Positions 39,131 to 64,000 of a stretch of DNA of 64,000 bases are shown piece after piece. The stretch covers positions 58 through 64,057 of the forward strand of contig CAYURP010000004.1 of the NCBI GenBank assembly GCA_964447175.1, written 5' to 3'. The position numbers and the translations under genes were made by a program. Numbering within the stretch: position 1 is the stretch's first letter; each line of letters begins with the position of its first letter. The notes below the pieces were generated by a model. The model worked only from the letters and a program-made list of their open reading frames with translations, was not told the origin of the DNA and ran no database searches. Source of the stretch: an uncultured Ignavibacteria bacterium. Lineage in GTDB: Bacteria; Zixibacteria; MSB-5A5; SM23-73-2.

Positions 39131-40097
39131 GACCCAAATCAAGAGATTTATATTCCACCTTAAAACTGAGAAAAACTGTTCCACTCATACTTTGATCTCG
39201 TATCACAATGATCTCATTGATCTTTTTGAATATCTAAGCATTGTAAAAGAACTTAAACACATTGATCCTTCTAAGATAAAGAGAAATGAATTAAGAAGCT
39301 TCCTTGTTTATATGAAGCAAAAAGGATTATCTAATAGAAGTATTATACGTAAAATATCAGCCATAAGGTCTTTTTATAGGTTTCTATTTAGAGAGGGGAA
39401 AATCAAATCTGATCCATCTTCTTATATATTGACTCCCAAAGTGAAAAAAATGCTGCCCGAGGTTTTGACATCTGGTGAGATGGAAAATGTCTTTAATTTA
39501 CCATATTTTAAAGACCCCCAACTCTTAGAAAGAAGGAAGCTTTGGCTTCTTCGTGATTTGGCGATTCTTGAGGTATTCTATAGCACTGGAATGAGACTGG
39601 ATGAGCTGACTCAGCTGGATGTTTCCTCTTTTGATTTTAATGGAGAGACTGTCCGGGTTCTGGGTAAAGGGAAAAAAGAGAGAGTGATCCCTGTGGGCCG
39701 AAAGGCATTGAAAGCTTTGAGAATCTACCTTGATGAAAGAAAAAGGCTTTCTTTTTTAGAGAACCAGGCGGTTTTCATCAATAAGTTTAAAAAAAGACTA
39801 TCCTCCAGAAGTATCTCCCGAATAGTCAAGAAATATCTGTCTAAAATCACCGAGAAAAAAAAGATTTCTCCCCATATTATCAGGCATAGCTTTGCCACCC
39901 ATCTTCTGGATGCTGGAGCTGATCTTATGGCAGTAAAGGAGCTTTTGGGCCACAAAAAACTCTCCACCACCCAGATTTATACTCACGTAACAATGGATAG
40001 ATTGAAAAAGGTTTACAGACAGGCTCATCCGAGAGCAGAGAAGGAAATCTCAGTTAGAATGCAAGGGAAACAAAAATTTTCTGGAGCGAAAAGATGA
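39117..40097 (+). CDS. xerC: Tyrosine recombinase XerC/CodV.
   Basis: '[36 protein letters not shown]' is the catalytic R-H-R-Y region. The topA-xerC-hslV-hslU order is the same as B. subtilis topA...codV-clpQ-clpY. Confidence 0.9.
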
Positions 40098-44529: not shown

Positions 44530-46515
44530 ATGTTCAGAAAAATAGCGATTTTGGCTGCATTCCTTGCTTTTGTCGCATTTGATCTGAATGCTCGTTCTCT
44601 GATTTCAGAAGAGCCAATTAAAATGAACGGAATCCCTGAGGCTCAGCAGAGGGTGCATAGAGTGGGGAACGTTTATTTCTGCAACACCAACTGGGGTTTT
44701 TTAGGAAGCCAGATGAGAGACATATATGAGTCCATAGGTGGGTGCTTCAATCCCAACCCTGAGAAGGAAGTTCAGGCTCCTTCGTTTGAGACTCCACCGA
44801 ATTCTGGATTAGAATACCTTTTCCAGGGTGCGCTCTGGATCGGAGCTATAGTTACAACCAATACAGAAATTGAGACACTGGTAACTGTGGGTGCGGATGG
44901 CTGGTGGTGGATCTATGAGATGGCACCAGGTGAGGGGTCGGAGTATGGGATAATCGAGAAGTCCACAATCCATCCAACTTCCTGTTATTCTCCGGAGGCT
45001 CTTTCTGCACAGGATATAATAGGAATTTTCTCGGATACTGCTGATGCTCCACTTTCTCCCTGGGATCCGAGTACAGACTGGGATGGCAGACCGCATCATC
45101 CCTTAGGAGTAGAAATCACTCAAATTGGTTACTCCTGGTCATTGCCGGAGTATGGCGATTTCATAATTCTATGCTATATAGTTAAGAACATCGGAACCTA
45201 TAATTTGTCTGAAATGTACCTGGGTTTCTATATGGATACAGATATCTGTCATATCAGCGAGAATCCCTATAATCCAGATGAAGGAGCTCAAGATGACATA
45301 ACCGGCTTTTTGAAGAATTACGTTACACCATCTGGAGAAACAACTGAGGTGAATATTGCCTGGGCTGCTGATAATGATGGCCAGCCATACTCAGGAGTAT
45401 TTACTGAACTCAGTCCTACAGGTGTGATAGGGCTGAAACTGCTGGGTTGTAGCAACCCTAATGTCGGAATTTCATATAATTGGTGGATTTCAAATTATCA
45501 AGGTTATCCATGGGACTGGGGTCCCTGGCTTAAGGTAAATCAACAAAAATGGGAGGAAATCAACCCATACGGATCGGGAAACCGTTTTCCAGATAATGCC
45601 ATGGGCACACCAGGAGGTGATCGGTCCAAATATTTTATCTTGTCCAACGGAGAGATGGATTTTGATCAGATATTCACAGATACCTTGCCCAAGCTGGATA
45701 CTTCCTGGGTTCCAGCTCAAAGTTCAGTATCCCAGGATTTGGTTGATGGATATGATATTAGATTTCTTTATTCATTGGGCCCTTTTAATCTTCCTCCAGG
45801 TGATAGTATTTTCGCAGCAATAGCATTGATGGCTGGTGGAAGTTTTCATAGTGATCCTGAAAACGAGGATGTTAACCTGCCTTTGTATCCTTATACCTAC
45901 TACTCAAATCTTGATTTCTCGAACTTAATTGAAAATGCACAGATAGCCCAGCAGATTTATGATACTTTACTTGACTTCCACCCACCTGCGTCAATCAAAA
46001 ATCTTAGAGCGAGCTTAATTGAAAATGGCTCAGTTACTCTTACCTGGACCACCCCTGGTGATGACTGGGATTTCGGTATAGCTTCTTTTTATGATTTAAG
46101 ATATTCAGATTTACCTGTGGAAGAAGATACCATTTCCTGGTGGGAGCAAGCATATATAGCTACAAATTTGCCTGTCCCTTCTGAGCCAGGATCTATAGAT
46201 AGCTGCCAGGTTTCAGGCCTTTCATCAGACAGTGTTTATTATTTCATTATCAGAGCCTGTGACGATGTGGGTTATTGCTCAGATTTTTCTAATATCGCCT
46301 ATTCAGGGCTATCTGGTGATATTGACCTGAACGGTCAGGTTGATATAGACGACATCTTAATTGTAGTTCAATATACATTAAAATCTGGTTATCTTGTGCT
46401 TCCACTGGCTGCTGCGGATGTGAATGGTGACTGCTTGGTCAACATTGTTGACGTGGTTTATCTGGTTAACTATGTGTTCAAAGGAAGAGCTGCTCCTCAA
46501 ATTGGATGTGCTTAG
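44530..46515 (+). CDS. Secreted protein with an FN3-like domain and a C-terminal tandem dockerin module.
   Basis: The signal peptide is MFRKIAILAAFLAFVAFDLNARS. The FN3-like stretch is 'IKNLRASLIENGSVTLTWTTPGDDW...YYFIIRACDD'. The C-terminus reads 'GDIDLNGQVDIDDILIVVQYTL...ADVNGDCLVNIVDVVYLVNYVFKG'. Confidence 0.7.
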   Translation: MFRKIAILAAFLAFVAFDLNARSLISEEPIKMNGIPEAQQRVHRVGNVYFCNTNWGFLGSQMRDIYESIGGCFNPNPEKEVQAPSFETPPNSGLEYLFQGALWIGAIVTTNTEIETLVTVGADGWWWIYEMAPGEGSEYGIIEKSTIHPTSCYSPEALSAQDIIGIFSDTADAPLSPWDPSTDWDGRPHHPLGVEITQIGYSWSLPEYGDFIILCYIVKNIGTYNLSEMYLGFYMDTDICHISENPYNPDEGAQDDITGFLKNYVTPSGETTEVNIAWAADNDGQPYSGVFTELSPTGVIGLKLLGCSNPNVGISYNWWISNYQGYPWDWGPWLKVNQQKWEEINPYGSGNRFPDNAMGTPGGDRSKYFILSNGEMDFDQIFTDTLPKLDTSWVPAQSSVSQDLVDGYDIRFLYSLGPFNLPPGDSIFAAIALMAGGSFHSDPENEDVNLPLYPYTYYSNLDFSNLIENAQIAQQIYDTLLDFHPPASIKNLRASLIENGSVTLTWTTPGDDWDFGIASFYDLRYSDLPVEEDTISWWEQAYIATNLPVPSEPGSIDSCQVSGLSSDSVYYFIIRACDDVGYCSDFSNIAYSGLSGDIDLNGQVDIDDILIVVQYTLKSGYLVLPLAAADVNGDCLVNIVDVVYLVNYVFKGRAAPQIGCA

Positions 46516-50005: not shown

Positions 50006-50608
50006 ATGGCAAAGTTTCGCCATGCAGTTTTAAATGAGATGAGTCTCGGTGGTCGTGTCAGAGTTTTTGCAGAACCCTTAGTCATTGAGGAAATATTGAA
50101 GCACGTCAAGCAAAGTGGGGCTAAGAGCAAAAAGCAATTTCAGAATGTCTTTTTTTATCATAGGTTGCCTTCACCGATTGATCTTCTTTGCCTCGAGATA
50201 TTAGGTGAAGCAATTATGTTAGGCAAATTAGATGTTCTTAGTGAATTCATTTTGATCCCTCCTAAAATTGATCCCTCCTTGAAGCATATAGGCGGAAGAA
50301 GAGGAAGAACAACCGAATCCCCAGAACACCAAGGGATGAAAATATGGGTAAGAGATTTCCTACATTCTAAAGAAATTTCAGCTGTGTGGGAGATATCATA
50401 CTTGGGTTATCATGTGGACGTAGGATGCCTCAAAAAACTGATTTTTGTTGAATGTGGTGACACGGAACCTCGTAAGATATTTGAATTCCTTCGTCAAAAT
50501 CTGAGCATCGGTATACTTCAGTATGATTCTGAAGAAATCTTATGGTTTAAACCTAAAGCCTCTTTTACGGAATTCGCGAATTCCAAGGCTGATGGGCTGA
50601 TTGTTTAG
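50006..50608 (+). CDS. Hypothetical protein (200 aa) inside the repeat-bracketed segment.
   Basis: It is an intact ORF with no recognisable family. Confidence 0.4.
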   Translation: MAKFRHAVLNEMSLGGRVRVFAEPLVIEEILKHVKQSGAKSKKQFQNVFFYHRLPSPIDLLCLEILGEAIMLGKLDVLSEFILIPPKIDPSLKHIGGRRGRTTESPEHQGMKIWVRDFLHSKEISAVWEISYLGYHVDVGCLKKLIFVECGDTEPRKIFEFLRQNLSIGILQYDSEEILWFKPKASFTEFANSKADGLIV

Positions 50609-51089: not shown

Positions 51090-51545
51090 TTATGCTGCCT
51101 TTAGCTCTGATGTACAGTTAGGGCAACGGGTTGCCTTTATTGATATCTTTGAGAAACAGTAGGGACAATCTTTGGTGGTGGGTTCAGGGGGCGGAGCTTC
51201 CTCTTTGCGCTTGAGCTTGTTGATACCGCGAATGAGAAGGAATACCGCAAAAGCAACTATTAAAAAACTGATAATGGTGTTTATGAAGACCCCGTAGTTC
51301 AATGAAACCGCACCGGCTGCCTGAGCATCATTAAGGGAAGCATAGGGTCCGGGAGTAGTACCACTTTTCAGAATCACAAAAAGGTTGGAAAAATCCACGT
51401 TACCCAATAGCAGGCCGATGGGTGGCATAATGACATCGGTAACCAGTGATTTGACGATTGTTCCGAAAGCAGCACCGATGATGATCCCTACTGCCATGTC
51501 CACTACGTTGCCCCGCATGGCAAACTCTTTGAAATCCTTCAGCAT
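51090..51545 (-). CDS. mscL: Large-conductance mechanosensitive channel.
   Basis: '[44 protein letters not shown]' matches MscL. Confidence 0.9.
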
Positions 51546-51884: not shown

Positions 51885-51913
51885 TTGACAATTGGGGTTG
51901 AGCTTAATAAGAT
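51885..51913 (+). promoter_or_regulatory. Sigma-70-like promoter for comEC.
   Basis: TTGACA-17 nt-TAAGAT, ~70 bp upstream of the 51986 ATG. Confidence 0.4.
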
Positions 51914-51985: not shown

Positions 51986-54316
51986 ATGACAAGCAGGAAA
52001 CCTGCGCTTTTTATAACCATTGCTTTTGTTTTCGGGGTGATTCTGGGGAACCATCTGGAGGTTTCCTCGACTCTTCTATTTATCTGCTTATTTTCACTTC
52101 TTGTTTTATCCCTTATTTTATGTTTTAAGAGATTAAAAACAGCTTTGAGTTTTGTTTTTATTCTCTGTTTTATTTTGGCTGGATTTTTCGTTCATGAATT
52201 GAAAACAAAGGATTTTCCTGCAGACCATATCATTCATTTCCTGGATCTGAACCGCAAGATCAGCTTAAGCGGAACTGTGTGCAGAGACCCGGATATCAGG
52301 GAGGACAAGACCTTTCTAACCGTAAATTCCGAAAGCATACTTCTAGATGGGTCATTTATCAAAATATCCGGAAGGGTGCTTATTAAAATCAAATCTCCAA
52401 CTAATCGCTTCAATTACGGGGATCATATAAGGGTAAAAGGTTACCTGGGATCACCTTATTCCTCCCGAAATCCGGGAGCTTTTGATTATAAGAAATATCT
52501 GGCTCAATCCAATATTTTCGGTCTTTTGACTGTAAGAAATCCTAATGACGTTAAGATACTTTTCCAGGAGAGGGAAAATCCGTTTTTATCCTACGTTGTC
52601 TACCCGGTCAAACATTTCATCTTAAAAGTTTTCCGAACTACGCTCAGAGGTGCGCATCAGGCTCTGCTCTCCGGATTTGTGCTGGGTGAGAGAAGAGATA
52701 TTCCTGAGGATGTCTACCAGATGTTTACGGATACGGGGACTTTGCACCTTTTAGCAATCTCCGGATCGAATGTGGGATTGGTTGTTTTGTTCTTTTTTGG
52801 CTTTTTCAGGCTTGTCAGATTTCCGAGGAAGTTGTGTATTTTATTAACTTTACCGGCTATAATCATTTTTTCTTATGTGACTAATAATCAGCCCTCGGTG
52901 GTCAGAGCCTCGATTATGGCAATCATTTTTCTTCTGGCTTTTTTCTGGGAAAGGGAAAAGGATTTAATTAATATCTTAGCTTTTTCTGCGCTTTTGATTT
53001 TGTTTTTCTCACCTTTGAGTCTTTTCGATGTGGGGTTTCAGCTCTCTTTCGGTGTAACTTTGGGGCTTTTGGTTTTCGTTGTTCACCCCGATTCTCTTTT
53101 CCACAAAATTTCCCTTAAGTTTAAAGGTTTTGTCAAGAACTGGATAATATTGCCTGTTTTTGTCTCCCTGGTAGCTCAGATAGCCAGCTACCCTATACTG
53201 GCTTATCATTTCAACCAGATCAGCTTGTACGCTTTTGCAGCGAATCTGGTGGTAGTTCCTCTGGTAAGTGTTGCGGTGATAACCGGAAGCTTAACCGTTA
53301 TTTCTGCACTTTTTAGCATAAGTTTAGCTCAAATCCTTTCTGCTTTCAACTGGGTGGTTCTGACCTTCACCCTCAAGGTGGTGGGGTTTTTCTCCCAGCT
53401 TCCCGGTGCAACTTTAGATCTGCCCTCACCTTCATATCTTTTTATTATTCTCTACTATCTTTTCTTTTTAGTTATCCTGATTGGCTGGGGCAAAAAAGCC
53501 AGGAGAATAGGTTTTTTCAGTTTGATTTGTCTGAGCGCTTTGATTATAAGCCAGGAAGTTTTATCCCGAAAAGGGAAATTGGAGATAACATTTATGGATG
53601 TGGGCCGGGGGCAGAGTATTCTAATAGATTTAACTTCAAAAGAAAAAATACTTATAGATACCGGACCAAAAAGCTCAACCTGGGATGCCGGGGAAAGGGT
53701 GGTGGTTCCCTATCTAATAAAGAAAAACATAAGATTCATAGACCGGCTTATACTGACATCTGAGGGAGATGAGTTCAATGGTGGTCTGGAGTCGGTGCTT
53801 CAAGAGGTGAAAGTGGGGAAGGCGATGATTTCAGATTCTTCTCAGAAATTAGCCCAGTTATTAGAAGGTTATGGAATCCCTTATCAGAACATGCAGGAAG
53901 GCTTTGATTTGGATGGGAACGTAAAGATTTTTAACTATTTGCCCGATAAAGAAAAGAAAGGATACCTTTTGACCCTGGAGTATGGGGATTTTAATGCCTT
54001 TTTTTTAAATTCTAATCCAGGAAAAGGGATTCTTAATTTACTTAGAGGTAAAGACTTCCATTTGGTGAGCACATTGTCAGAGTGTGTGGAGGAGGATGAA
54101 TTCAAAGAGGTAGTTGATGCTTTAAAACCGCAGGCGATCATATTGACAAGCTATGAACATCCCTGGGATGTGCCTGATCTTAAAAGACTGGATTTTAAAG
54201 TTCCCGTATTCTGGACTAAGGATAAGGGTGCGATAAAGATTGAGATTAAAGGATCTGATTTAAAATTAAAATGGATGTTGGGTAAGAAAAGATCAAAAAG
54301 ATTTAGGTTGAGGTGA
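51986..54316 (+). CDS. comEC: DNA internalisation competence protein ComEC/Rec2 with a C-terminal metallo-beta-lactamase domain.
   Basis: It is polytopic. The competence-domain motif is 'LHLLAISGSNVGLVVLFF'. The C-terminal MBL-like domain starts at 'LEITFMDVGRGQSILIDL'. Confidence 0.9.
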   Translation: MTSRKPALFITIAFVFGVILGNHLEVSSTLLFICLFSLLVLSLILCFKRLKTALSFVFILCFILAGFFVHELKTKDFPADHIIHFLDLNRKISLSGTVCRDPDIREDKTFLTVNSESILLDGSFIKISGRVLIKIKSPTNRFNYGDHIRVKGYLGSPYSSRNPGAFDYKKYLAQSNIFGLLTVRNPNDVKILFQERENPFLSYVVYPVKHFILKVFRTTLRGAHQALLSGFVLGERRDIPEDVYQMFTDTGTLHLLAISGSNVGLVVLFFFGFFRLVRFPRKLCILLTLPAIIIFSYVTNNQPSVVRASIMAIIFLLAFFWEREKDLINILAFSALLILFFSPLSLFDVGFQLSFGVTLGLLVFVVHPDSLFHKISLKFKGFVKNWIILPVFVSLVAQIASYPILAYHFNQISLYAFAANLVVVPLVSVAVITGSLTVISALFSISLAQILSAFNWVVLTFTLKVVGFFSQLPGATLDLPSPSYLFIILYYLFFLVILIGWGKKARRIGFFSLICLSALIISQEVLSRKGKLEITFMDVGRGQSILIDLTSKEKILIDTGPKSSTWDAGERVVVPYLIKKNIRFIDRLILTSEGDEFNGGLESVLQEVKVGKAMISDSSQKLAQLLEGYGIPYQNMQEGFDLDGNVKIFNYLPDKEKKGYLLTLEYGDFNAFFLNSNPGKGILNLLRGKDFHLVSTLSECVEEDEFKEVVDALKPQAIILTSYEHPWDVPDLKRLDFKVPVFWTKDKGAIKIEIKGSDLKLKWMLGKKRSKRFRLR

Positions 54317-54317
54317 A

Positions 54318-55484
54318 ATGAGTCTGGTAGGAAATTTAAAGACGGTTTCTTTTTCTGATCTTTTGCAGCTTATCAGCACCAACAAGAAGAGCGGTATGCT
54401 TTCCATAACCCGCCAGAACCAGCAAAAAAGCCTTTTCTTTTTGGAAGGGGATCTGATTTCATTTGTCACCAGCGAGCAGGAGGATTGGTATCTGAGTCAG
54501 CTTCTGATACGCAAAAGGAAAATAGACAAAAAGGATTGGGATAGGGCTCTGCTTTTATCGAAAAGCTCCGGAAAGGGAATTGCAGAAACCCTGGTGGAAT
54601 TGGGTTTGATATCCAGGCGAGATGTTCTGGAGGCTTTAAAAACACGAATTGAGGAGGTGGTTTTCGCCATTTTTGGCTGGGAGGAGGCTGATTTTGAGTT
54701 TATGGAAGGTAAGCTGCCACCCCCAACTGATTCCAAATTGAAAATGAATACCATGGGTCTGATAATGGAGGGAGCCAAAAGGGTGGATGAATGGTCGGAG
54801 ATTCAGAAGACCCTTCCGCCGGGTGATTTTACCCTGGAACTGAACCTGAAGCCTCCAGCTAAAGATGGAATGTTAAACTTGACCCTGGATGAATACCAAA
54901 CCTTGCTTCTGATAAACGGACAAAGAAGTGTCAGCGAGATTTTAATGGAAAGTCCTCTGGGGGAGTTCACCACCTCCAAATCTTTGTCTCTTCTGATCTC
55001 AAATGGGTTGGTGATGAAAGGAGAACAAAAAACTGCATACCAGAACAAAGAGGATGAGGAGAAAGCTTTGCTGGATATAGTTTTTCAGGTTTATCATCAT
55101 TGTTTTTCCGTTACGGAGGAGGTCTTAATCCAGAAGCTGGGACAGGGGAAAGACGAACTGCTAGACCGTCTTGTTGGCCAGCAGAAAAGATACTATCCTA
55201 TTCTGGGGAGATTATTAAAAAAAGGTTTTTTGGGAAAAGATAACTTTTTATCGGTAGCAAAGGAGATCCCCCAGGAAATCAGATTGCATAAAATTTTGGA
55301 TTTGCTTAATTCGGTTTTATTTGCATACTTGAAAAACCTGCATTCGATTCTGGGTATAAATATAAAAAATAACCTATATGACCAGCTTAAGAGGGAAATT
55401 GCCCCTTTTCTGGAAGCTGATAAATTGGTAGCTGAAAAATATCAGCTCCAACAGGAAATATACAGGATTTTAGATAAAGTTTGA
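54318..55484 (+). CDS. DUF4388 (PATAN-like N-terminal) domain protein.
   Basis: The N-terminus 'GNLKTVSFSDLLQLISTNKKSGMLSITRQNQQKSLFFLEGDLI' matches the DUF4388 signature (G.L.......LLQ.L.....G.L.L). It lies upstream of the roadblock/MglA genes. Confidence 0.65.
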   Translation: MSLVGNLKTVSFSDLLQLISTNKKSGMLSITRQNQQKSLFFLEGDLISFVTSEQEDWYLSQLLIRKRKIDKKDWDRALLLSKSSGKGIAETLVELGLISRRDVLEALKTRIEEVVFAIFGWEEADFEFMEGKLPPPTDSKLKMNTMGLIMEGAKRVDEWSEIQKTLPPGDFTLELNLKPPAKDGMLNLTLDEYQTLLLINGQRSVSEILMESPLGEFTTSKSLSLLISNGLVMKGEQKTAYQNKEDEEKALLDIVFQVYHHCFSVTEEVLIQKLGQGKDELLDRLVGQQKRYYPILGRLLKKGFLGKDNFLSVAKEIPQEIRLHKILDLLNSVLFAYLKNLHSILGINIKNNLYDQLKREIAPFLEADKLVAEKYQLQQEIYRILDKV

Positions 55485-55882
55485 ATGGGAAATATGAGAT
55501 GAAGGGAAAGTTTTTTTTCTTAGTTCTGTTGTTTATACTATCAGGGATAAGCTTTTCCCAAACTTATGCCCAGATCGAAGGTGATGTTTCAGTGCAAGGC
55601 TCTTTTCTGGATGTGATTTTGAATTTCGCGATTCTTTTAGCTGTCTCTGGGTGTTTTGTTTACACTAAAAAAATCGAGTCATTCCTTAAAGGAGGCGAGC
55701 TTTCCCCGGGCTGGTTATTAATACTGATTTCATTTTTCGTGCTGGTGCTCTTGCAGTTTGTCAAGCTGGGGAATTCAATGAATATCTTTAACTTCGATTC
55801 AGCTCTTTATTCATTTTTAAAGCTAATATGGGTGATTCTCTTGGGATGGGGGATTTATCAATTGAAGAAGGTTATAAGCTAA
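55481..55882 (+). CDS. Small membrane protein, hypothetical.
   Basis: It has a signal peptide plus ~3 hydrophobic helices. Its start overlaps the stop of the upstream gene. Confidence 0.4.
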   Translation: MNGKYEMKGKFFFLVLLFILSGISFSQTYAQIEGDVSVQGSFLDVILNFAILLAVSGCFVYTKKIESFLKGGELSPGWLLILISFFVLVLLQFVKLGNSMNIFNFDSALYSFLKLIWVILLGWGIYQLKKVIS

Positions 55883-55962
55883 ACCAAAAACTCAAGTGGT
55901 TTGAGTGGATTTACCGGGCTTTAGTGACGATAGAAAATAAAGGGTGAAGTGAGAGGTTACAG

Positions 55963-56799
55963 ATGGTAAATGCTGATGAATTAGATGACAGAATCGATAA
56001 ATGTAAAAAAATATTATCTAAAGACCCGGAGTCTTTGATATTCGCTGCCCTGTCCGAGGCTTATCGAAGAAAAGGGGATTTGAATATGGCCACCAAGGTC
56101 TGCAATCAGGGTCTCAAAACCCATCCGGATTACGGTTCTGCTCATCTGGTTCTGGCTAAAATAAATATGGACAAAAGGTTTTTTGCTGAGGCGGAGAAGG
56201 AGCTCTTTTTGGCTATCAAAGCCGATGGCCAAACCAGAGCCAACGAGCTCCTTTTATCTGAGATATTGATAAAAAAGGGCAAGTCTATGGAAGCAAAAAA
56301 ACTCCTGGATAAACTTTTTGCTACAGATCCGGAAAACCCTCAGGTAACAAAACTTCTTGAGGAGATCGAGAGCCAAGAGAAAGCAGGGGAAACCGAAGTC
56401 AAATGGAAGGATATTCCAACCGATTATAAGATCTTCAAACAACTCAAAGAGAAACTCTCTCCCCGGGAAGCTCTGGATGAGATTTTAAAAGTACCTGGTG
56501 TTCTGGGTTGTTTAATTATAGATAAAGATGGTCTGATAACCGAACATAGATTCAAACAGGAATCAAACATCGAAGCCATAGGTGTAGCAAGTGCTGTGGT
56601 CTTTGGGGAGATTCAGAAAAGTTTGCCCCGGATAGATTTCGGCACACTGGATCAAGCCCTGATTGAAAGCAAAGAGATGAACTTTTTGGTGCTGAAATTG
56701 GATAATTTACTTTTGAGTGTGTGCTGTGATAACCGGACCAATTTCGGCTATATGAAAATCAGGCTTTCTAAGGTCAGGGAAAGGATATCTATTACATAG
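55963..56799 (+). CDS. TPR-repeat protein fused to a C-terminal roadblock/LC7 (MglB-like) domain.
   Basis: The N-terminal TPR-like helices are LIFAALSEAYRRKGDLNMA and YGSAHLVLAKINMD. The C-terminus 'VPGVLGCLIIDKDGLITEHRFKQESNIEAIGVASAVVFGEI' shows the roadblock pattern. Confidence 0.55.
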   Translation: MVNADELDDRIDKCKKILSKDPESLIFAALSEAYRRKGDLNMATKVCNQGLKTHPDYGSAHLVLAKINMDKRFFAEAEKELFLAIKADGQTRANELLLSEILIKKGKSMEAKKLLDKLFATDPENPQVTKLLEEIESQEKAGETEVKWKDIPTDYKIFKQLKEKLSPREALDEILKVPGVLGCLIIDKDGLITEHRFKQESNIEAIGVASAVVFGEIQKSLPRIDFGTLDQALIESKEMNFLVLKLDNLLLSVCCDNRTNFGYMKIRLSKVRERISIT

Positions 56800-56822
56800 A
56801 GGTAAAAATAACGGAGAAAAGA

Positions 56823-57734
56823 ATGAAAAAAGAAAATAGAAGGGAGCAAAGGCTTTTGATTTTGTTGGGATTTTTTCTGGCAGTGGTCCCTTTGGCATTT
56901 TTTCCTAATGATTTGGGCGTGAAAATCGATACCACCCCTTTTCTTGTCTTTCCTTTTGAGATGCTATGGTATTTCGTGGTTTATCTTCTCTTGTTCTCTG
57001 AGTTACCTTTGTCTGTTCCTTTTCTTTATGCTCTTATCACTTTAGGCTTAAGGCTTATAATTGGAGCCGTTTTTGGCATGCTGCTTTATATTATGTTTCC
57101 ATTGGAAACAATATCCCTGATGAAGGTAAATATCTTCACGTATTTTCCCGCATTATTGATCCAGGCAACTTTGTTGCCTTTTGTGGTAAAGATTTCTCTG
57201 GGAAACACAATAGAAGCTTCCTGGAAAGAAAGAAAAAGACCCCATAAGGTTTTCCTTTCTTCCTTCCAGCCATCTGAAGAGAAAAAAGAAACTGTAGCAG
57301 AAAAGCCGGAGAAAATCCAGGTGGACTTAGAAGCGGCTTTGGATTACGTTAAGGAGTATTCAGGCGTGGAAGGTGTAATCCTGCTGGACCAAGAAGGTTT
57401 GGTGGTTGCCAATAGAGTTAATTCTGGTTGGGATGACGAGAAAATCGCACCCCTGGCTTTGCTGTTAAGAAAAATTAACTCCCAAGAGTTGGGCAAAATA
57501 GATACCAGCCCGATTGAGAGAATGGAGCTTTTGTCTCAAAAACTCTGGATCAGTTTGAATAATATTGGCGATTTTACCTTGGTATGCCTGGCTCATCGGT
57601 CCACAGATGAACTTCTAAATATCAGGATATTAAAGGCTGTGGAAATGATAAGGAAATATTTAGATGAAAAATATGCCGGAATATTTTCGAAAAATCAGGA
57701 GGTAGAGAATGTACCAGATCTTAGAAGAGCTTAA
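56823..57734 (+). CDS. Membrane-anchored roadblock/LC7 domain protein.
   Basis: It has ~5 N-terminal TM helices. A cytoplasmic C-terminal roadblock-like domain follows ('VKEYSGVEGVILLDQEGLVVANRVNSGWDDEKIAPLALLL'). Confidence 0.5.
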   Translation: MKKENRREQRLLILLGFFLAVVPLAFFPNDLGVKIDTTPFLVFPFEMLWYFVVYLLLFSELPLSVPFLYALITLGLRLIIGAVFGMLLYIMFPLETISLMKVNIFTYFPALLIQATLLPFVVKISLGNTIEASWKERKRPHKVFLSSFQPSEEKKETVAEKPEKIQVDLEAALDYVKEYSGVEGVILLDQEGLVVANRVNSGWDDEKIAPLALLLRKINSQELGKIDTSPIERMELLSQKLWISLNNIGDFTLVCLAHRSTDELLNIRILKAVEMIRKYLDEKYAGIFSKNQEVENVPDLRRA

Positions 57735-58056
57735 CAAGACCTCTGGTATAACCGGAAGTCTTTTGGTGGGCTCCGATGGGATAATCATCGCAGCAGATTT
57801 AGATACTCGTTTTCAGGATGAAACTGTTGGTGCTCTGGCAGCCTCCATAGTGAGCACTGTGGATAAATCGCTGGAGAAACTTCAGGGGACTCCTTTCAAA
57901 CAGGTAACCATCGAGGCAGATAAGGGAAAACTATTCCTCATGGATGTGGGAATAGGGGTTTTGGTGGTAACCACTGAACCGGATGTTAATATGGGTCTGG
58001 TGAGGTTGGAGATCAAAAACGCTCGTCATAGGATCCAAACCAGAGAATCAATGTAA
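57709..58056 (+). CDS. Roadblock/LC7 domain protein (MglB/MglC-like).
   Basis: 'LNKTSGITGSLLVGSDGIIIAADLDTRFQDETVGALAASIVST...FLMDVGIGVLVVTTEPDVNMGLVRLEIKNA' matches the roadblock fold. Confidence 0.8.
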   Translation: MYQILEELNKTSGITGSLLVGSDGIIIAADLDTRFQDETVGALAASIVSTVDKSLEKLQGTPFKQVTIEADKGKLFLMDVGIGVLVVTTEPDVNMGLVRLEIKNARHRIQTRESM

Positions 58057-58071
58057 AAAGAATAAAGGAAT

Positions 58072-59046
58072 ATGGTCTCAATAAATTATGCTTTCAAGGA
58101 GATTTCCTGTAAAATAGTATACTATGGACCGGGATTGAGTGGTAAAACCACCAACTTACAATATGTTCATAAGAAAATTCCGTCCAATACCAAAGGGGAG
58201 TTGATATCCTTGGCTACCGATGCGGACAGAACTTTGTTCTTTGATTTTCTTCCTTTAAATATTGGGGACATTCATGGGTTCTCTGCCAAGTTCCAGCTTT
58301 ATACTGTGCCCGGTCAGGTTTTCTATAATGCCACCAGAAAGTTGGTCTTACGTGGGGTGGATGGTCTGGTTTTTGTGGCTGATTCCCAGGGATCTAAAAT
58401 GGATGAAAATTTAGAGAGTCTGGAAAACCTTAAAGAGAATTTGAGGGAATATGGTTATGATATGGACAAGCTGCCTATGGTTTTTCAATATAACAAAAGG
58501 GATCTGCCGGACATCACTTCCCTGGAGGAACTGGAAGCCCAGCTTAATCCTAAAGAACTGGTTTTTTTTGAGTCTGTAGCCACCACCGGACAAGGCGTTT
58601 TCGACACCCTTAAGTGCATCACTAAAATGGTTCTGGATAAAACCAAAGGTAAACCGGAAGTTAGCGAAAGCGAAAAATATGTCTCCCCGGAGTTGGAAAT
58701 GGCACAATACAGAGCAGAAAAGTTAAAAGCTAAAATAGTTCCCGGGGCAATGGAGAAGATTCTTGTGGCTGAGGAATCTGAAGAAAGAGTTCCAGAAGAG
58801 GTCTTAACTCCAAAAACTGCCGTTTTAGAAAAGCAGGATCAAGTGGAAACAAAAATACCCATTTACCAACCCGTTCCTTCTGAACTCAAGAGGAAAATCT
58901 TAACTGAGAAAAAAACTGAGCACAGGGAAAAGATCGTATCAGCACCAATTTCCCGGGAGAAGATATTTGCGATTTCCGTGAAAAGAAAACGAACCCCCAG
59001 AGGTTTTTCCTTGTGGGGTTGGATAAAGAAACTAATAGGACAATAA
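58072..59046 (+). CDS. mglA: Ras-like GTPase MglA with a ~125-aa C-terminal extension.
   Basis: Residues 1-195 align almost colinearly with M. xanthus MglA. The conserved blocks are INY...EI.CKIVYYGPGL.GKTTNLQY, DRTLFFDFLPL, LYTVPGQVFY, GVDG.VFVADSQ, MESLENL and QYNKRDLP. A K/E-rich extension follows, ending 'RGFSLWGWIKKLIGQ'. Confidence 0.9.
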   Translation: MVSINYAFKEISCKIVYYGPGLSGKTTNLQYVHKKIPSNTKGELISLATDADRTLFFDFLPLNIGDIHGFSAKFQLYTVPGQVFYNATRKLVLRGVDGLVFVADSQGSKMDENLESLENLKENLREYGYDMDKLPMVFQYNKRDLPDITSLEELEAQLNPKELVFFESVATTGQGVFDTLKCITKMVLDKTKGKPEVSESEKYVSPELEMAQYRAEKLKAKIVPGAMEKILVAEESEERVPEEVLTPKTAVLEKQDQVETKIPIYQPVPSELKRKILTEKKTEHREKIVSAPISREKIFAISVKRKRTPRGFSLWGWIKKLIGQ

Positions 59047-59062
59047 CCCAGGAGGTATCCCC

Positions 59063-59551
59063 TTGAACTCAAGTGATCTTGTGATCTATGAAGATCAAAT
59101 AGAGGAGATCGATAAGGCGCTGATCAAATTAATCAAAGGCGCGGAAGCCAAATGTGCACTTCTGGTGGATAAAGATGGTTATCTTATTACCCGCCAGGGG
59201 TTCACACATTCTCTGGATACCACGGCTTTATCAGCGCTTCTGGCCGGAAGCTTCGCCTCCACCAAGGAAATCGCTCGCTTGGTGGGCGAACCTGAATTTA
59301 GCGTCCTTTTTCACCAGGGCAAAAGGGATCACATCCACCTTTGTCTGATTGATGAACGCACTATTCTGGCAGTGATCTTTGACGACCGAACTACAATCGG
59401 AATGGTGAGATTATACGCAAAAGAGGTATCGGAGGATCTGGCCAGAATCCTTTCTCAAGCCCAGAAAGACAATAAACCCAAAGATTCCAAGCTGGACTCT
59501 GAATTTACCCGCTCGGTGGAAAACAAGCTGGATGATATCTTCAAAGACTAA
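59063..59551 (+). CDS. mglB: MglB (roadblock/LC7 GAP of MglA).
   Basis: 'LVDKDGYLITRQGFTHSLDTTALSALLAGSFAST...ILAVIFDDRTTIGMVRLYAKEVSEDL' is closely colinear with M. xanthus MglB (FLVDKNGQLIS...DTTSLASLTAGN...VVLVVIFDNRTSLGLVRLRIKKASDEL). Confidence 0.85.
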   Translation: MNSSDLVIYEDQIEEIDKALIKLIKGAEAKCALLVDKDGYLITRQGFTHSLDTTALSALLAGSFASTKEIARLVGEPEFSVLFHQGKRDHIHLCLIDERTILAVIFDDRTTIGMVRLYAKEVSEDLARILSQAQKDNKPKDSKLDSEFTRSVENKLDDIFKD

Positions 59552-59560
59552 GGATGGGAG

Positions 59561-61252
59561 ATGTCAGTTGAATTAGGTGGAATGCTGGTCAAAGCGGGCA
59601 AGATCACCCAAAACGAGCTTGACCAGGCCCTGGAGAAACAAAAAAAGACCAATGGCAAGTTAAGTGAGATTTTAATTGAACTGGGAGCCATTGTAGACGA
59701 GGAGGAGCTTTTCCAATTTGTGGGAAAACAGCTGAACATCGGAGCCTTAAGGCTCTCCGATGTGGAGCTTAATCCCGAAGTGGTAAAGCTCATTCCTTTA
59801 GATATAGCTAGAAAATTCAATGTAATTGCCATCAGCAGAATTGGGAAAACTTTAATTGTAGCTATTTCAGATCCCAACAACATCTATGTTTTAGATGCCA
59901 TTAAATTTATAACCGGATGTAATATTCAGCCGGTTATCTCGCCGGAGAAATCGATTCAAAAAGCCATAGAAACCTATTATCACGATTCCGGGGCCATTGA
60001 TGAAATCTTAAGGGGTTTAGAGGATGAGGGATTGGAGGTGATAGAAAACGAGGAACTGCCCTCGGAGCAAGATCTTCAGTCTCAGGTTCAGGATAAACCT
60101 CTGGTCAGGTTAGTGGACGGAATCATCACCGATGCTATCCGAAGAAATGCCTCAGACATTCACATCGAAACCTACGAGAAGAGGATAAGGGTCAGATTCA
60201 GAATCGACGGATTACTTCAGGAAATGGCTCCTTTGCCCTTCAAATACCGGGCAGCCATAGTATCAAGGATCAAGATCATGGCTGATCTGGATATCTCCGA
60301 AAGAAGACTGCCCCAGGATGGGCGAATAAAAGTGAGAGTGGGGGATAGGGCTATTGACATTCGTCTGTCAGTCCTTCCCACTTTGTTCGGGGAGAAGGTA
60401 GTGATGCGTATTTTGGATCCTAGGAGTTTGATGGTGGATTTAACTAAGTTAGGTTTTCCTGAGAGGGGATTAAAAGAATTCGCTCGAGCCATAAGCCTAC
60501 CTTATGGGATGATACTGGTCACCGGTCCCACGGGAAGTGGTAAGACCACCACTCTTTATTCGGCTTTGAAACAGGTGAATGCTCCTGAGGTAAATATCTT
60601 AACCGCTGAGGACCCGATCGAGTTTAATTTCGATGGGATAAATCAGATTCAGGTTAAACCGGATATCGGTTTCACTTTTGCCTCCTCCCTGAGGTCTTTT
60701 CTTCGACAGGACCCGGACATAATAATGGTGGGTGAGATCAGAGATGAGGAAACAGCAGAGATTGCTATTCGAGCTGCTTTGACCGGACACCTGGTATTTT
60801 CCACATTGCATACCAACGATGCGCCCAGTACCCTTAATCGACTTTTGGATATGAACATTCCCAATTATCTGGTAGCTTCAGCAGTGAGATTGATTATGGC
60901 TCAGCGGATAGTGCGAAAAATCTGCAATCACTGCAGAGAGGAGTTCTCGATTCAGCCAGAGACGTGGGAGATGTTGGGAATAGATGAGGAACAAAGAAAG
61001 GATTTCAAAGTTTACCGAGGCCGGGGTTGCCCGGAATGCAATAATACCGGCTACTCCGGAAGAATCGGAATTTTTGAGGTCATGCCCATTACCCGGGATG
61101 TGGAAAAGATGATTTTCTCCAAAGCCTCCAGTCAGGATCTAAAAGATCAGGCTAAAGCCGAGGGTATGCTTACTTTAAGAGACGCTGCCATAGAGAAACT
61201 CAAAAACGGGATTACCTCAGTGGAAGAGGTCCTGGCAGCAACAATCATGTAA
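59561..61252 (+). CDS. pilB: Type IV pilus assembly ATPase PilB (GspE family).
   Basis: The N-terminal T2SSE_N-like domain is LVKAGKITQNELDQALEKQK. The Walker A is 'GPTGSGKTTTLYSAL'. The C-terminal tetracysteine is CNHC...CPEC. Confidence 0.9.
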   Translation: MSVELGGMLVKAGKITQNELDQALEKQKKTNGKLSEILIELGAIVDEEELFQFVGKQLNIGALRLSDVELNPEVVKLIPLDIARKFNVIAISRIGKTLIVAISDPNNIYVLDAIKFITGCNIQPVISPEKSIQKAIETYYHDSGAIDEILRGLEDEGLEVIENEELPSEQDLQSQVQDKPLVRLVDGIITDAIRRNASDIHIETYEKRIRVRFRIDGLLQEMAPLPFKYRAAIVSRIKIMADLDISERRLPQDGRIKVRVGDRAIDIRLSVLPTLFGEKVVMRILDPRSLMVDLTKLGFPERGLKEFARAISLPYGMILVTGPTGSGKTTTLYSALKQVNAPEVNILTAEDPIEFNFDGINQIQVKPDIGFTFASSLRSFLRQDPDIIMVGEIRDEETAEIAIRAALTGHLVFSTLHTNDAPSTLNRLLDMNIPNYLVASAVRLIMAQRIVRKICNHCREEFSIQPETWEMLGIDEEQRKDFKVYRGRGCPECNNTGYSGRIGIFEVMPITRDVEKMIFSKASSQDLKDQAKAEGMLTLRDAAIEKLKNGITSVEEVLAATIM

Positions 61253-61439
61253 ATTCTCCCTTAATAACCTAAAACAAGGATTAGAAAACCTCAGACGGAT
61301 TCAATTTATTCATAAGAATTAAAAAACTATGGGGAAAAGATTACTGGCCACTCCTATTCCTTTTTAATAACACTATGTTTAAGAATTCCTTTTTTGGGTC
61401 GATAATATAAAAGAAAAGCCAAATCATGAGGGGAGGTCA

Positions 61440-62519
61440 ATGGTTACCCTAAGAGAGCTTTTAGAGTTGATGACCAAAAGGAATGCCTCGGATTTGCATT
61501 TAACTGTGGGATCACCACCCCAGTTAAGGATAGATGGTAAACTGGTCAAAACCGAGTACGATCCCTTGACTCCGGAGGATACCAGGAAATTAGCTTATAG
61601 CATTATGACAGAGAAGCAGAGGAAAAGATTTGAGGAGGAATCGGAACTGGATTTATCCTTCGGGATAGAGCAGATGAGCCGCTTCAGATGTAACGTTTTT
61701 ATGCAGAGAGGGAATGTGGCCGTAGCATTGAGACTTATCCCCTTCAGGATCAGAAGTTTTGAAGAGCTGGGAATACCTAAGGTGGTGGTGGATTTTGCCA
61801 AACTCCCCCGGGGCCTGGTGTTAGTCACTGGTCCTACGGGAAGCGGAAAATCGACTACCTTAGCCTCAATCATAAACAAGATCAATCTGGAACGCCACGA
61901 ACATATCCTGACCGTGGAGGATCCTATTGAATATCTTCATAGACATAACTGTGCCCTGATAAACCAGAGGGAGGTTTACTCGGATACCGCTTCCTTTGCC
62001 AGTGCCTTAAAATATGCTTTAAGGGAGGATCCGGATGTAGTTCTCATTGGCGAGATGAGGGATCTGGAAACAACCGATGCCGCTTTAACCATTTCGGAGA
62101 CCGGGCATCTGGTATTTGCTACCCTGCATACCAACTCCTGTGCCGAGTCGATCAACCGAATAATTGACATCTTCCCCTCCAATCAGCAGGAGCAGGTGCG
62201 GGTAGTGCTCTCTTTTGTGCTGCAGGCTGTAGTGACCCAGCAGCTGATTCCTAAAATTGGTGGGGGAAGGGTTTTGGGTTTAGAGATAATGGTCTGTACT
62301 CCAGCCATACGTGCTCTGATCCGGGATGACAAAATACATCAGATCTACAGCATGATTCAGGCCGGACAAAAGTATGGGATGAAAACCATGAACCAGTCAT
62401 TATCTGAGCTTTATTTAAATAAGAAAATTACAATGAGCGATGCCTTGGGCCGAAGCTCTAATATTCAAGAACTTAATGAGATGATTTCCAGGAAACATAA
62501 GACTTTTGCATCGGTATAG
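61440..62519 (+). CDS. pilT: Twitching motility retraction ATPase PilT.
   Basis: 'ASDLHLTVGSPPQLRIDGKL' is present. The Walker A is 'GPTGSGKSTTLASI'. The 'VLIGEMRDLET' motif and the ~360-aa length are PilT-like. Confidence 0.9.
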   Translation: MVTLRELLELMTKRNASDLHLTVGSPPQLRIDGKLVKTEYDPLTPEDTRKLAYSIMTEKQRKRFEEESELDLSFGIEQMSRFRCNVFMQRGNVAVALRLIPFRIRSFEELGIPKVVVDFAKLPRGLVLVTGPTGSGKSTTLASIINKINLERHEHILTVEDPIEYLHRHNCALINQREVYSDTASFASALKYALREDPDVVLIGEMRDLETTDAALTISETGHLVFATLHTNSCAESINRIIDIFPSNQQEQVRVVLSFVLQAVVTQQLIPKIGGGRVLGLEIMVCTPAIRALIRDDKIHQIYSMIQAGQKYGMKTMNQSLSELYLNKKITMSDALGRSSNIQELNEMISRKHKTFASV

Positions 62520-62550
62520 AATAATAAAAGAAAATCCTTGGAGGTGAAAT

Positions 62551-63750
62551 TTGCCAGTATTTGAATATAAGGGTAAGACATTAACTGGCTCAGCTGTTGC
62601 CGGGGAGTTGAAAGCCAGGAACAAAGTAGAACTTCAGAGGATCCTGCGGAACAATAAGATTCTGGTTACCTCCGTCACTCGAAAGGCCTCCCAGATCACC
62701 ATAAGGTTGAGAAGAAGGATAAAGAAGATTCACATTTCCAGATTCACCCGACAATTTTCTACCATGATTGGTGCGGGATTGCCCATGGTTCAGTGCCTGG
62801 AGATATTAGCCCAGCAATCGGAATCACCAGAACTGAGGGAGGTAATCGATAAGGTCAAGGAAAGCGTGCAATCCGGAAGCACCTTGGCAGATGGTTTGTC
62901 CCGACATAAAAAAGCATTTGACGATCTTTACGTGAGCATGGTGGATGCCGGAGAAATTGGGGGTGCTTTAGATCAGATACTTCTCCGATTAGCCACTTAC
63001 CGGGAAAAGGCGGATGCTTTATCCAGAAAAGTCAGGGGCGCTTTAGTCTATCCATCGGTAATAGTGGTGGTGGCCACTGGTGTGACTTTTATTATGTTGA
63101 CTTATATTGTTCCGGTCTTTGCCAAGATGTTTGAGGGCCTGGGAGCGGAGCTTCCTATGCCCACCCAGATGGTCTTGAAATTAAGCGGTTTCCTGAGAGG
63201 CAACATACTGGTTGGGATTGTCCTTTTGATACTCCTTTTGATTTTCTACCGCTGGTATTCCAAGACGGACAAAGGAAGGCTTTTGATTGACAGAGTGAAA
63301 TTAAAAGCACCTCTTCTGGGTAGTCTTTTGAGGAAAACGGCTATCTCCAGGTTTACCCGAACCCTGGGAACCCTGATCTCATCCGGTGTTTCCATTCTGG
63401 ATGCACTGGAGATTACTGCTAAGACCGCCGGGAACCGGGTGATTCAGGACGCTATTAAAAGAAGCGTGGTTTCAATTGCCGAGGGTGAAACCATAACTCA
63501 TCCCTTAAAGGAGACGGGAGTTTTCCCTCCCATGGTTACCCAGATGATCTCGGTGGGAGAGAAAACCGGAGGTTTAGACGATATGCTCCAGAAGATTGCC
63601 GACTTTTACGATGAAGAGGTGGATGCTGCTGTTGCAGCTTTGACCTCGATTATCGAACCGGTGATCATAGTACTTATGGGACTGGTAATCGGTGGAATCC
63701 TGATTGCCATGTATCTGCCCATGTTCGACATCATCGGAAAGATCAGCTAA
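62551..63750 (+). CDS. pilC: Type IV pilus inner-membrane platform protein PilC (GspF family).
   Basis: It has two GspF repeats (FTRQFSTMIGAGLPMVQCLEIL and FTRTLGTLISSGVSILDALEI). It has a TTG start. Confidence 0.9.
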   Translation: MPVFEYKGKTLTGSAVAGELKARNKVELQRILRNNKILVTSVTRKASQITIRLRRRIKKIHISRFTRQFSTMIGAGLPMVQCLEILAQQSESPELREVIDKVKESVQSGSTLADGLSRHKKAFDDLYVSMVDAGEIGGALDQILLRLATYREKADALSRKVRGALVYPSVIVVVATGVTFIMLTYIVPVFAKMFEGLGAELPMPTQMVLKLSGFLRGNILVGIVLLILLLIFYRWYSKTDKGRLLIDRVKLKAPLLGSLLRKTAISRFTRTLGTLISSGVSILDALEITAKTAGNRVIQDAIKRSVVSIAEGETITHPLKETGVFPPMVTQMISVGEKTGGLDDMLQKIADFYDEEVDAAVAALTSIIEPVIIVLMGLVIGGILIAMYLPMFDIIGKIS

Positions 63751-63825: not shown

Positions 63826-63866
63826 AAAACACCATCGCTTTTTAAGCGATGGTGTTTGGTGTTTTA
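63826..63866 (+). terminator. Rho-independent terminator after pilC.
   Basis: It has a perfect 11-bp stem AACACCATCGC/GCGATGGTGTT with loop ttttttaa, followed by tggtgtttt. Confidence 0.7.
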
Positions 63867-63877
63867 GAAAGAAAAAA

Positions 63878-64000
63878 TGTCAGGATCAATCCAGAAGACC
63901 GGCTACGCACTTCACTGGCTTTTAACTCTGAGACTGATCATATATGTTCTATTGCTTGGTATTGTGGTCTTTTTTTTGAAATCGCCTGGATTTCTGGTAA
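63878..64000 (+). CDS. 3'-truncated ORF encoding a hydrophobic N-terminus (MSGSIQKTGYALHWLLTLRLIIYVLLLGIVVFFLK...). It may be a membrane or prepilin-like protein.
   Basis: The open frame runs from the ATG at 63878 to the window end. It is too short to classify. Confidence 0.25.

Follow-up and report, generated by a model that had tools for sequence, protein, structure and literature searches.

A conserved Zixibacteria operon that sets an MglA/MglB pair and three further roadblock-fold proteins beside type IV pilus motor genes

MglA, a small GTPase, and MglB, the GTPase-activating protein (GAP) that acts on it, are the paradigm of Ras-like polarity control in bacteria. The mechanism is known almost wholly from Myxococcus xanthus, where the components are scattered. 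In M. xanthus, MglA-GTP brings the extension ATPase PilB to the base of the type IV pilus through the tetratricopeptide repeat (TPR) protein SgmX (PMC7519303, PMC11580455). Homodimers of MglC and MglB stack, and MglA-GTP breaks the contact between them; the authors of that work liken the arrangement to Rag/Ragulator, and RomR is also part of the described RomR/MglC/MglB roadblock stacking (PMC10329633). Both the MglA-TPR-PilB axis and roadblock stacking are thus established in M. xanthus. PATAN proteins are among the candidate SgmX partners (PMC11580455), and PATAN-domain regulators bind PilB1 in Synechocystis (bioRxiv 10.1101/2021.06.11.447907). PATAN genes are occasional neighbours of group 1 and group 5 mglA, and mglA has also been found coupled to two mglB-like genes (PMC4316618, PMC4719450). 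The Thermus MglAB proteins affect pilus localisation (PMC12024867). The present report describes an mglA-mglB locus with additional roadblock genes and pilus motor genes. It lies in a stretch of 64,000 nucleotides, called the window throughout, from an uncultured bacterium labelled Ignavibacteria (assembly GCA_964447175.1, contig CAYURP010000004.1, positions 58 to 64,057). Its relatives place this organism in the Zixibacteria, a lineage outside the myxobacteria as had been supposed.

Ten open reading frames (ORFs), all on the + strand, occupy positions 54318-63750 with short or negative spacers (Table 1). Their order is g1 (PATAN protein), g2 (small membrane protein), g3 (TPR-roadblock fusion), g4 (membrane-roadblock protein), g5 (free roadblock protein), mglA, mglB, pilB, pilT and pilC. 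Window ORFs were assigned to families with Pfam and NCBIfam at curated cutoffs. A preliminary description, made from the sequence alone, had listed the same ten ORFs, domains and gene order, and all ten were recovered at their positions. It did not include three further features that are treated below: the linker and polybasic tail of MglA, the MshEN-like insertion in the PATAN domain, and the adjacency of comEC.

The arrangement was compared across about 34 related loci (L001-L035) at 35-45% identity, nearly all of them labelled Zixibacteria, with gene order judged only on contigs that span it. When one genome for each GTDB species was scanned, the g4 alignment found 30 loci, labelled as Candidatus Zixiibacteriota, as metagenome-assembled genomes of 'uncultured Ignavibacteria', and in one case each as 'Terriglobales' and 'uncultured bacterium'. 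Searches with the window proteins (tblastn) found the order g1-g2-g3-g4-g5-mglA-mglB-pilB in every locus of sufficient length, in agreement with the gene calls, a recurrence far beyond chance, and the order withstands a divergence of the accessory proteins to 27-48% identity. Wherever the contig continues past mglB, pilB is the next gene. The gaps g3-g4, g4-g5, g5-mglA and mglA-mglB all measure at most 42 nt (30-33 loci); g4 and g5 overlap or lie 1 nt apart in 33 of 33 loci, and mglA is followed by mglB after 16 nt in the window and after 2-20 nt in 32 loci. Judged from this spacing, g3-g4-g5-mglA-mglB is an invariant and probably translationally coupled core, with g1-g2 upstream and pilB downstream as constant neighbours. 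Several loci share wider flanks, namely geranylgeranyl reductase, rpsT, murJ and comEC upstream and pilS downstream. The module is best explained as a phylum-wide, vertically inherited operon of the Zixibacteria and is more than a curiosity of one genome.

Table 1. Features of the module and its flanks in the window. Identity is the median across the related loci relative to the window protein.
Feature	Position	Strand	Description	Median identity (%)
comEC	51986..54316	+	DUF4131 and Competence domains (Pfam)	
g1	54318..55484	+	388 aa; PATAN (DUF4388/PatA_N), PF14332	43 (N-terminal), 35 (C-terminal)
g2	55481..55882	+	133 aa; polytopic membrane protein, no known family	29
g3	55963..56799	+	278 aa; TPR, disordered linker, roadblock domain	55 (TPR domain), 27 (roadblock domain)
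g4	56823..57734	+	303 aa; domain of 4-5 transmembrane helices (1-137), disordered linker, roadblock domain (168-285)	39 (transmembrane domain), 47.5 (roadblock domain)
g5	57709..58056	+	115 aa; free single-domain roadblock protein, overlaps g4 by 26 nt	65
mglA	58072..59046	+	324 aa; small GTPase, G domain, linker and polybasic tail	77 (G domain)
mglB	59063..59551	+	162 aa; roadblock-fold GAP homologue with C-terminal helix	80 (roadblock domain)
pilB	59561..61252	+	type IVa extension ATPase, N-terminal MshEN (PF05157), 9 nt past mglB	74
pilT	61440..62519	+	retraction ATPase	82
pilC	62551..63750	+	inner-membrane platform protein	76
hairpin	63827..63857		14-bp perfect stem, 77 nt past pilC	
pilS-like sensor kinase, start of ORF	63877..64000	+	runs out of the window end	

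MglA aligns over residues 3-192 with M. xanthus MglA (PDB 5ymx; E 1.9e-79, ~73% identity), and MglB over residues 4-161 with M. xanthus MglB (E 1.4e-31), the C-terminal helix included. MglA keeps the P-loop GPGLSGKT, the switch I motif DRT (DRTLFFDF), TVPGQ (YTVPGQ) and NKRD (YNKRD), and so carries the P-loop, switch I Arg-Thr, catalytic Gln and NKxD by which group 1, the M. xanthus type, is recognised. The Arg-Thr of switch I constitutes an intrinsic arginine finger. MglB scores 44.7 bits on the Pfam model Robl_LC7 (PF03259), whose gathering score is 23 bits. On NF052242, a Thermus-specific equivalog, it reaches 91.9 bits, below the cutoff of 200, as expected for a lineage other than Thermus. 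By these sequence features MglA and MglB can be classed as an M. xanthus-type (group 1) pair, and the orthology to the Myxococcus GTPase and its GAP that had been proposed for them holds.

The preliminary description had counted three extra roadblock paralogues and allowed that profile searches might fail to support a roadblock fold in them. Such support was found for each: from Pfam for g3 and g5, from PF03259 matches of orthologues together with AlphaFold2 (AF2) and Foldseek for g4, and from profile-profile comparison with hhalign (95.7-98.8% probability) for all three. In g3, four or so TPRs (residues 1-140) are joined by a linker to a roadblock domain (166-278). Pfam reports TPR_19/TPR_14 and Robl_LC7 (31.3 bits, above the cutoff), and AF2 (model pLDDT 86.5) predicts eight helices for the TPR part, disorder for the linker, and for the rest a roadblock fold of alpha-beta-beta-alpha-beta-beta-beta-alpha topology with block-mean pLDDT of 84-93, falling to 78 at the C-terminal end. 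The window sequence of g4 scores 17.1 bits on Robl_LC7, below the threshold, while its orthologues carry PF03259. Its AF2 model, built with 15 homologues, has 4-5 transmembrane (TM) helices and a domain of the same topology (169-283; block-mean pLDDT 79-90), for which Foldseek retrieves Asgard roadblock proteins, LAMTOR2/3 and MglB (E 2e-8 to 1e-6, target TM-scores 0.75-0.88). E46, W49, Y50, R77 and K123 of the TM domain are invariant. A basic N-terminus and a basic stretch past the last TM helix suggest, by the positive-inside rule, that the roadblock domain of g4 is cytoplasmic. The free protein g5 scores 51.1 bits on Robl_LC7, above the cutoff. Thus g3, g4 and g5 are all roadblock-fold proteins.

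Alignments from the related loci were used for hhalign. The roadblock domains of g3 and g5 match with 98.8% probability (E 6e-17), those of g4 and g3 with 97.9%, and those of g4 and g5 with 95.7%; MglB matches g4 and g5 at E 1e-5 to 1e-7 and g3 at 0.0016. At the level of profiles, the three extra domains make up one paralogous group apart from MglB. Searched against PDB, the g5 profile finds Asgard roadblock proteins best (E 7e-14) and MglB only at 6e-5.

The TPR-fused and membrane-tethered forms had been called unusual, which holds, and they were found only in records that are labelled Zixibacteria or are unlabelled and metagenomic. All of the 178 homologues of g3 that bear an organism name are Zixibacteria, as is any taxon name present among the 52 clusters of g4 homologues. 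An exhaustive HMMER search with the g4 profile through 1.84 billion cluster representatives yielded 313 hits (E up to 1e-3), 111 of which match at E 1e-30 or better, most of them at full length (300-350 aa); ten representatives were looked up, and the 3 clusters with an organism name are all Zixibacteria. Judged from named records, the other records being unlabelled and metagenomic, the architectures of g3 and g4 are restricted to Zixibacteria. The best 120 of 880 homologues of g5 are all Zixibacteria orthologues with at least 64% identity, a set that leaves other phyla uncovered; across the related loci its identity is 59-94%. For about 20 short proteins (130-150 aa; e.g., P0396, P0400, P0403, P0414) the match to the g4 profile (E 1e-20 to 1e-32) is confined to its roadblock half. 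Three of them were looked up and lie on contigs of ~0.6-1.6 kb. Gene fragments, or a family of soluble paralogues from other organisms, may account for the group.

Conservation is uneven over the module (Table 1). The free protein g5 is constrained nearly like the GTPase and its GAP. g5, MglB and the MglA G domain are 65-80% conserved, like the PilB, PilT and PilC core, which is in keeping with direct contacts. The two halves of g3 differ, the TPR part being twice as conserved as the roadblock part. The least conserved member is g2, which has a signal-peptide-like N-terminus and about 3 (3-4) hydrophobic or TM segments and is present at the same position in 26 loci. That g2 duplicates the TM domain of g4 was considered and rejected (hhalign probability 0.2%).

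MglA itself departs from the known forms in its C-terminal part. The G domain (1-195) is followed by an extension (residues 196-324, encoded at 58657-59046) that consists of a variable E/K-rich linker (196-~300) and a polybasic, aromatic tail, which ends in the window protein as …KRKRTPRGFSLWGWIKKLIGQ. A conserved tail of this kind, …KGFFLWRFLKKLLNR with a net charge of ~+7, is found in every Zixibacteria MglA orthologue; another example is …KSKGFFLWRFLKKLLNR. All 32 orthologues are 313-449 aa long and bear the tail motif, whereas the PDB chains of M. xanthus and Thermus MglA have ~195-203 aa. The linker is rich in E, K and P, varies from 118 to 254 aa among the orthologues and is 15% identical. 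Among the orthologues the last 24 residues have a median net charge of +7, and for the tail the median of the best hydrophobic moment, taken over 11 residues, is 0.81. The combination of such a charge with such a moment is the signature of membrane-targeting amphipathic helices of the MinD or FtsA type. From these two properties the C-terminal tail is likely to be a membrane-targeting helix. An MglA tethered in this way was not found described in the literature, and to our knowledge this would be the first MglA with a built-in membrane tether.

At the upstream end, g1 matches PF14332 with 99.7 bits (cutoff 25; E 1.5e-28). The match covers residues 5-160 on a model of 122 positions, which implies an insertion of ~35 aa. 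A tandem MshEN-like motif makes up this alpha-helical insertion (residues ~59-112), which is followed by a C-terminal helical region of ~230 aa of unknown family. The MshEN motif we take to be two 24-residue units RLGxx(L/V/I)(L/V/I)xxG(L/V/I)(L/V/I)xxxxLxxxLxxQ with a 5-residue spacer. NF053729, a model of the MshE-related cyclic di-GMP (c-di-GMP) motif, is matched by 13 of 14 g1 orthologues (best E 2.7e-13). A strict second motif, RLGxxLLxxGLLxxxxLxxxLxxQ, occurs in 5 of 27 orthologues (as in L002, L013, L014, L016 and L017), and a first motif lies exactly 29 residues upstream of the canonical second one, which is the 24+5+24 layout of MshEN; examples are found at L002:6348-7562 and L016:4537-5751. 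With 33.2 bits on NF053729 the window protein itself stays under that model's cutoff of 38, and in its motif, GIAETLVELGLISRRDVLEALKTR, the Arg, Gly and Gln are replaced, which places it outside the MshEN type. No description of an MshEN tandem motif inside a PATAN domain in an MglA operon was found in the literature.

At the downstream end, PilB scores 726.2 bits on TIGR02538 (cutoff 675.65) and PilT 495.3 bits on TIGR01420 (cutoff 319.1). PilC has two T2SSF domains (Pfam; 223.8 bits, cutoff 25.2) and 490 bits on NF052606, below the cutoff of 700, as it is for all lineage-specific PilC equivalogs. The hairpin past pilC likely marks the end of the transcription unit; its T-tail is weak on the + strand. 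The translation of the following ORF, MSGSIQKTGYALHWLLTLRLIIYVLLLGIVVFFLKSPGFLV, resembles the N-terminus of the 6TM_PilS kinase encoded after pilC in L002 and L034.

The closest described relative is the polarity module of M. xanthus (MglA, MglB, MglC, RomR/RomX and RomY, with MglA-SgmX-FrzS-SopA leading to PilB). Common to both are a group 1 MglA of ~73% identity, an MglB with the C-terminal helix, one or more roadblock paralogues beyond the GAP, TPR and PATAN proteins in the MglA/PilB network, and PilB as the output. In M. xanthus, however, the genes are spread out: mglBA forms an operon of two, with mglC, sgmX and the pil genes situated elsewhere (PMC4719450, PMC11580455). Its MglA is a bare G domain of ~195 aa (PDB chains) without tether or tail, its MglC is soluble and has no detectable similarity to g3-g5, and its SgmX has 14 TPRs but no roadblock domain. 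Thermus thermophilus also has coupled mglA-mglB genes outside the myxobacteria, the deletion of which alters polar pilus localisation (PMC12024867). The similarity of the window proteins to those of Thermus is lower than to those of M. xanthus (MglA E 2e-72, MglB 1e-19), and Thermus MglA, with a PDB chain of 198 aa, is not known to have a C-terminal extension. We know of no extra roadblock paralogues and no PATAN or TPR-roadblock partners in Thermus.

The eukaryotic Ragulator-Rag assembly (LAMTOR) likewise combines several roadblock-fold proteins, a membrane anchor and a small GTPase, and the g4 roadblock model superposes on LAMTOR2/3 with target TM-scores of 0.8-0.88. The anchor in Zixibacteria is a polytopic TM domain fused to the roadblock domain, not a lipidated LAMTOR1 wrapper, and the GTPase does not itself carry a roadblock domain. 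The resemblance, known here from genes and models, is architectural, and homology of the assemblies beyond this is not claimed. Actinobacterial conservons (CvnA-D) are also conserved operons, in which genes for a membrane protein and a roadblock protein accompany that of an MglA-family GTPase. Theirs differ in having a group 2 MglA, the histidine-kinase-like CvnA and the DUF742 protein CvnC (PMC4316618), and in the lack of a pilus link. No HATPase/HisKA or DUF742 match was obtained for g1-g5, MglA or MglB with Pfam and NCBIfam, and a classification of the module as a conservon was rejected, there being no CvnA or CvnC and the GTPase being group 1-like. The cyanobacterial PATAN-REC proteins (PixG, PixE, PilG-type), which act on PilB1, share with g1 a genetic or physical tie of a PATAN protein to the type IV pilus extension ATPase. 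They differ from g1, which lacks a receiver domain, carries the MshEN-like tandem motif in its PATAN domain, has a distinct C-terminal region and is set in an MglA/roadblock operon. No mention of MglA in Zixibacteria was found in the literature, nor was a description of the complete operon, of a TPR-roadblock fusion, of a polytopic-membrane roadblock protein or of a polybasic-tailed MglA.

With the parts, order, coupling and phyletic restriction as observed, the reading moderately favoured here is that an MglA/MglB switch with roadblock accessories controls PilB. By analogy, a role in polarity may be supposed. A mechanism in four steps may be proposed. First, the C-terminal amphipathic polybasic helix, on its long flexible tether, would keep MglA at the inner membrane. 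Second, the polytopic g4 would nucleate a membrane-anchored stack of roadblock dimers, probably paired with the free roadblock protein g5, a likely dimer partner since the two genes are translationally coupled. The stack would dock MglB and/or MglA and so set the site of GTP hydrolysis, in parallel to the stacking of MglC with MglB in Myxococcus and of Ragulator with Rag in eukaryotes. MglA-GTP at the membrane would then be under the control of MglB, the position or activity of which would be set by the g4-based assembly. Third, MglA-GTP would recruit or license PilB at the PilC platform via g3 and g1, which are natural candidates for this link in view of the SgmX TPR precedent and of the PATAN regulators that bind PilB1. 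Fourth, the MshEN-like insertion of g1 may add a c-di-GMP input in some lineages. The output would be a pilus extension that is confined in place or in time and serves twitching, and possibly also DNA uptake in view of the adjacent comEC. Taken together, the four steps are a tentative proposal that may well not hold in full. The extra proteins could equally be scaffolds, anchors or modulators of the GAP. [quoted passage not shown]

A stronger form of the proposal is a platform of the Ragulator type, in which g4, g5 and g3 would form a membrane-anchored stack that captures the tail-tethered MglA and switches PilB on at a defined membrane site, with a c-di-GMP input through the PATAN-embedded MshEN in some lineages. 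In function, the linker and tail of MglA would here correspond to the hypervariable region with its lipid anchor in eukaryotic Ras/Rho proteins. This form is considered possible, with low confidence.

Several observations weigh against the control of PilB by MglA/MglB and the accessories, or narrow it. The preliminary description had spoken of direct coupling to both pilus extension and retraction. The synteny does argue for a functional coupling to the pilus motor, the link to pilB being invariant, but retraction was overstated, since pilT-pilC follow pilB in only ~17 of ~28 informative loci (~60%); in ~10 loci unrelated genes stand after pilB, such as those for ATP synthase (L003) or for the capsule (L001). 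The gap between g2 and g3 has a median of 260 nt, so that g1-g2 may be a separate transcription unit. SgmX, RomR/RomX and pilMNOPQ, the former two being members of the M. xanthus pathway, are absent from the window, as are gliding genes; ORFs with a family match elsewhere in the window have housekeeping or cell-surface roles. The tail of the window MglA is less amphipathic than that of most orthologues. The key Arg of the c-di-GMP motif is lost from the PATAN insertion in the window; c-di-GMP binding by this g1 was marked down for its degenerate motif and is doubtful in this organism. Finally, the idea that the extra roadblock proteins are MglC-like was rejected for want of sequence support: the g5 profile, run against all PDB sequences at E up to 10, found Asgard roadblock proteins, MglB, CvnB5 and LAMTOR2, and no chain named MglC. 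MglC itself is only 8% identical to MglB (PMC4719450), and with such extreme divergence there may yet be a functional analogy to it.

Among the alternatives, the one that fares best, while being unlikely, is that the module regulates a competence pilus, the operon starting at comEC and the MglA/roadblock set timing or positioning a transformation pilus. In the window comEC stops 1 nt ahead of the ATG of g1, and the two genes are possibly co-transcribed. Of the 10 loci with comEC upstream of the module, 6 have a gap of at most 40 nt; comEC stands next to the PATAN gene in the window, L003, L008, L010 and L034, which hints that DNA uptake and the pilus regulatory module may be linked in transcription, and the neighbourhood murJ-comEC-module is kept in L003 and L034. 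Thermus mglA/mglB mutants were reportedly studied for natural competence and pilus functions, to go by the title of work by Salzer in 2015 that PMC12024867 cites. In many loci, however, comEC is missing from the flank or is parted from the module by other genes or by more than 250 nt. Moreover, pilB, pilT, pilC and pilS are a standard type IVa pilus set that serves both functions, and the two roles are compatible. A promoter-like site at 51885-51913 is a consensus match only; the promoter scan of the window was uninformative, with 23 sites found against 22 expected.

The upstream flank differs in detail among the loci. In L003 and L034 murJ is directly followed by comEC. In the window the two are separated by a 200-aa ORF without family (50006-50608) and by an MscL homologue (51090-51545, - strand; PF01741, E 4e-44) with a C-terminal extension that bears a CxxC…CxxC zinc-ribbon-like motif.

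The MglA tail may instead be a tethered peptide ligand for an operon partner, for example the conserved TPR groove of g3, as part of a switch that is auto-regulatory or binds a scaffold. C-terminal peptides are common ligands of TPR domains. Both the tail and the TPR domain of g3 are Zixibacteria-specific, and they occur together in every locus; at 55% identity this TPR domain ranks first in conservation among the accessory domains. The tail, though, with its strongly basic (+7) and aromatic/hydrophobic make-up, resembles the membrane-targeting sequences of MinD or FtsA, and the g3 TPR domain is not acidic (net charge ~0 to +1), which leaves the ligand role improbable. Comparably improbable is that g3-g5 work independently of MglA, either as direct regulators of the ATPases PilB or PilT or as sensors of a membrane signal. 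Roadblock proteins are generic NTPase regulators and are found in archaeal type IV pilus loci without MglA; roadblock genes are frequent in archaeal type IV pilus loci (PMC4858521). The nearest solved relatives of g5 are archaeal roadblock proteins rather than MglB, and the invariant charged residues E46, R77 and K123 in the TM domain of g4 suggest sensing or coupling. Against this, g3-g4-g5 always abut mglA-mglB (at most 42 nt), whereas the gap to pilB is larger and variable (median 104 nt, 9 nt in the window). That the genes are unrelated neighbours in one genome, to which only the general caveat lends weight that gene order alone is no proof of function, is effectively refuted by an order that is invariant in ~34 loci despite the divergence of the accessory proteins to 27-45% identity and by overlapping or near-abutting frames that are kept, and hardly deserves credence.

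Elsewhere in the window, cell-surface proteins are encoded at 50-4438, 8544-9446 and 44530-46515. These three comprise one of 1462 aa with nine Big_9/cadherin-like repeats and a C-terminal dockerin domain, a 661-aa dockerin-domain protein, and one of 300 aa with a Por_Secre_tail sorting domain of the type IX secretion system; the latter signal fits an organism of the FCB group. ORFs without a Pfam match (E up to 1e-5) are found at 4922-8155 (+, 1077 aa), 25667-26854 (-, 395 aa) and 14160-15029 (-, 289 aa). A XerC/D-type tyrosine recombinase (39117-40097) lies between topA and hslVU, a classical housekeeping layout and no mobile element.

One conserved operon of the Zixibacteria thus holds the whole candidate pathway, i.e., GTPase, GAP, three roadblock accessories, TPR adaptor, PATAN protein and pilus motor, and offers a compact, defined parts list for reconstitution. 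If the proposed mechanism is true, the principle of stacked roadblock dimers and a GTPase, proposed as common to MglC/MglB and Ragulator/Rag, would extend to a membrane-anchored bacterial case. [quoted passage not shown]

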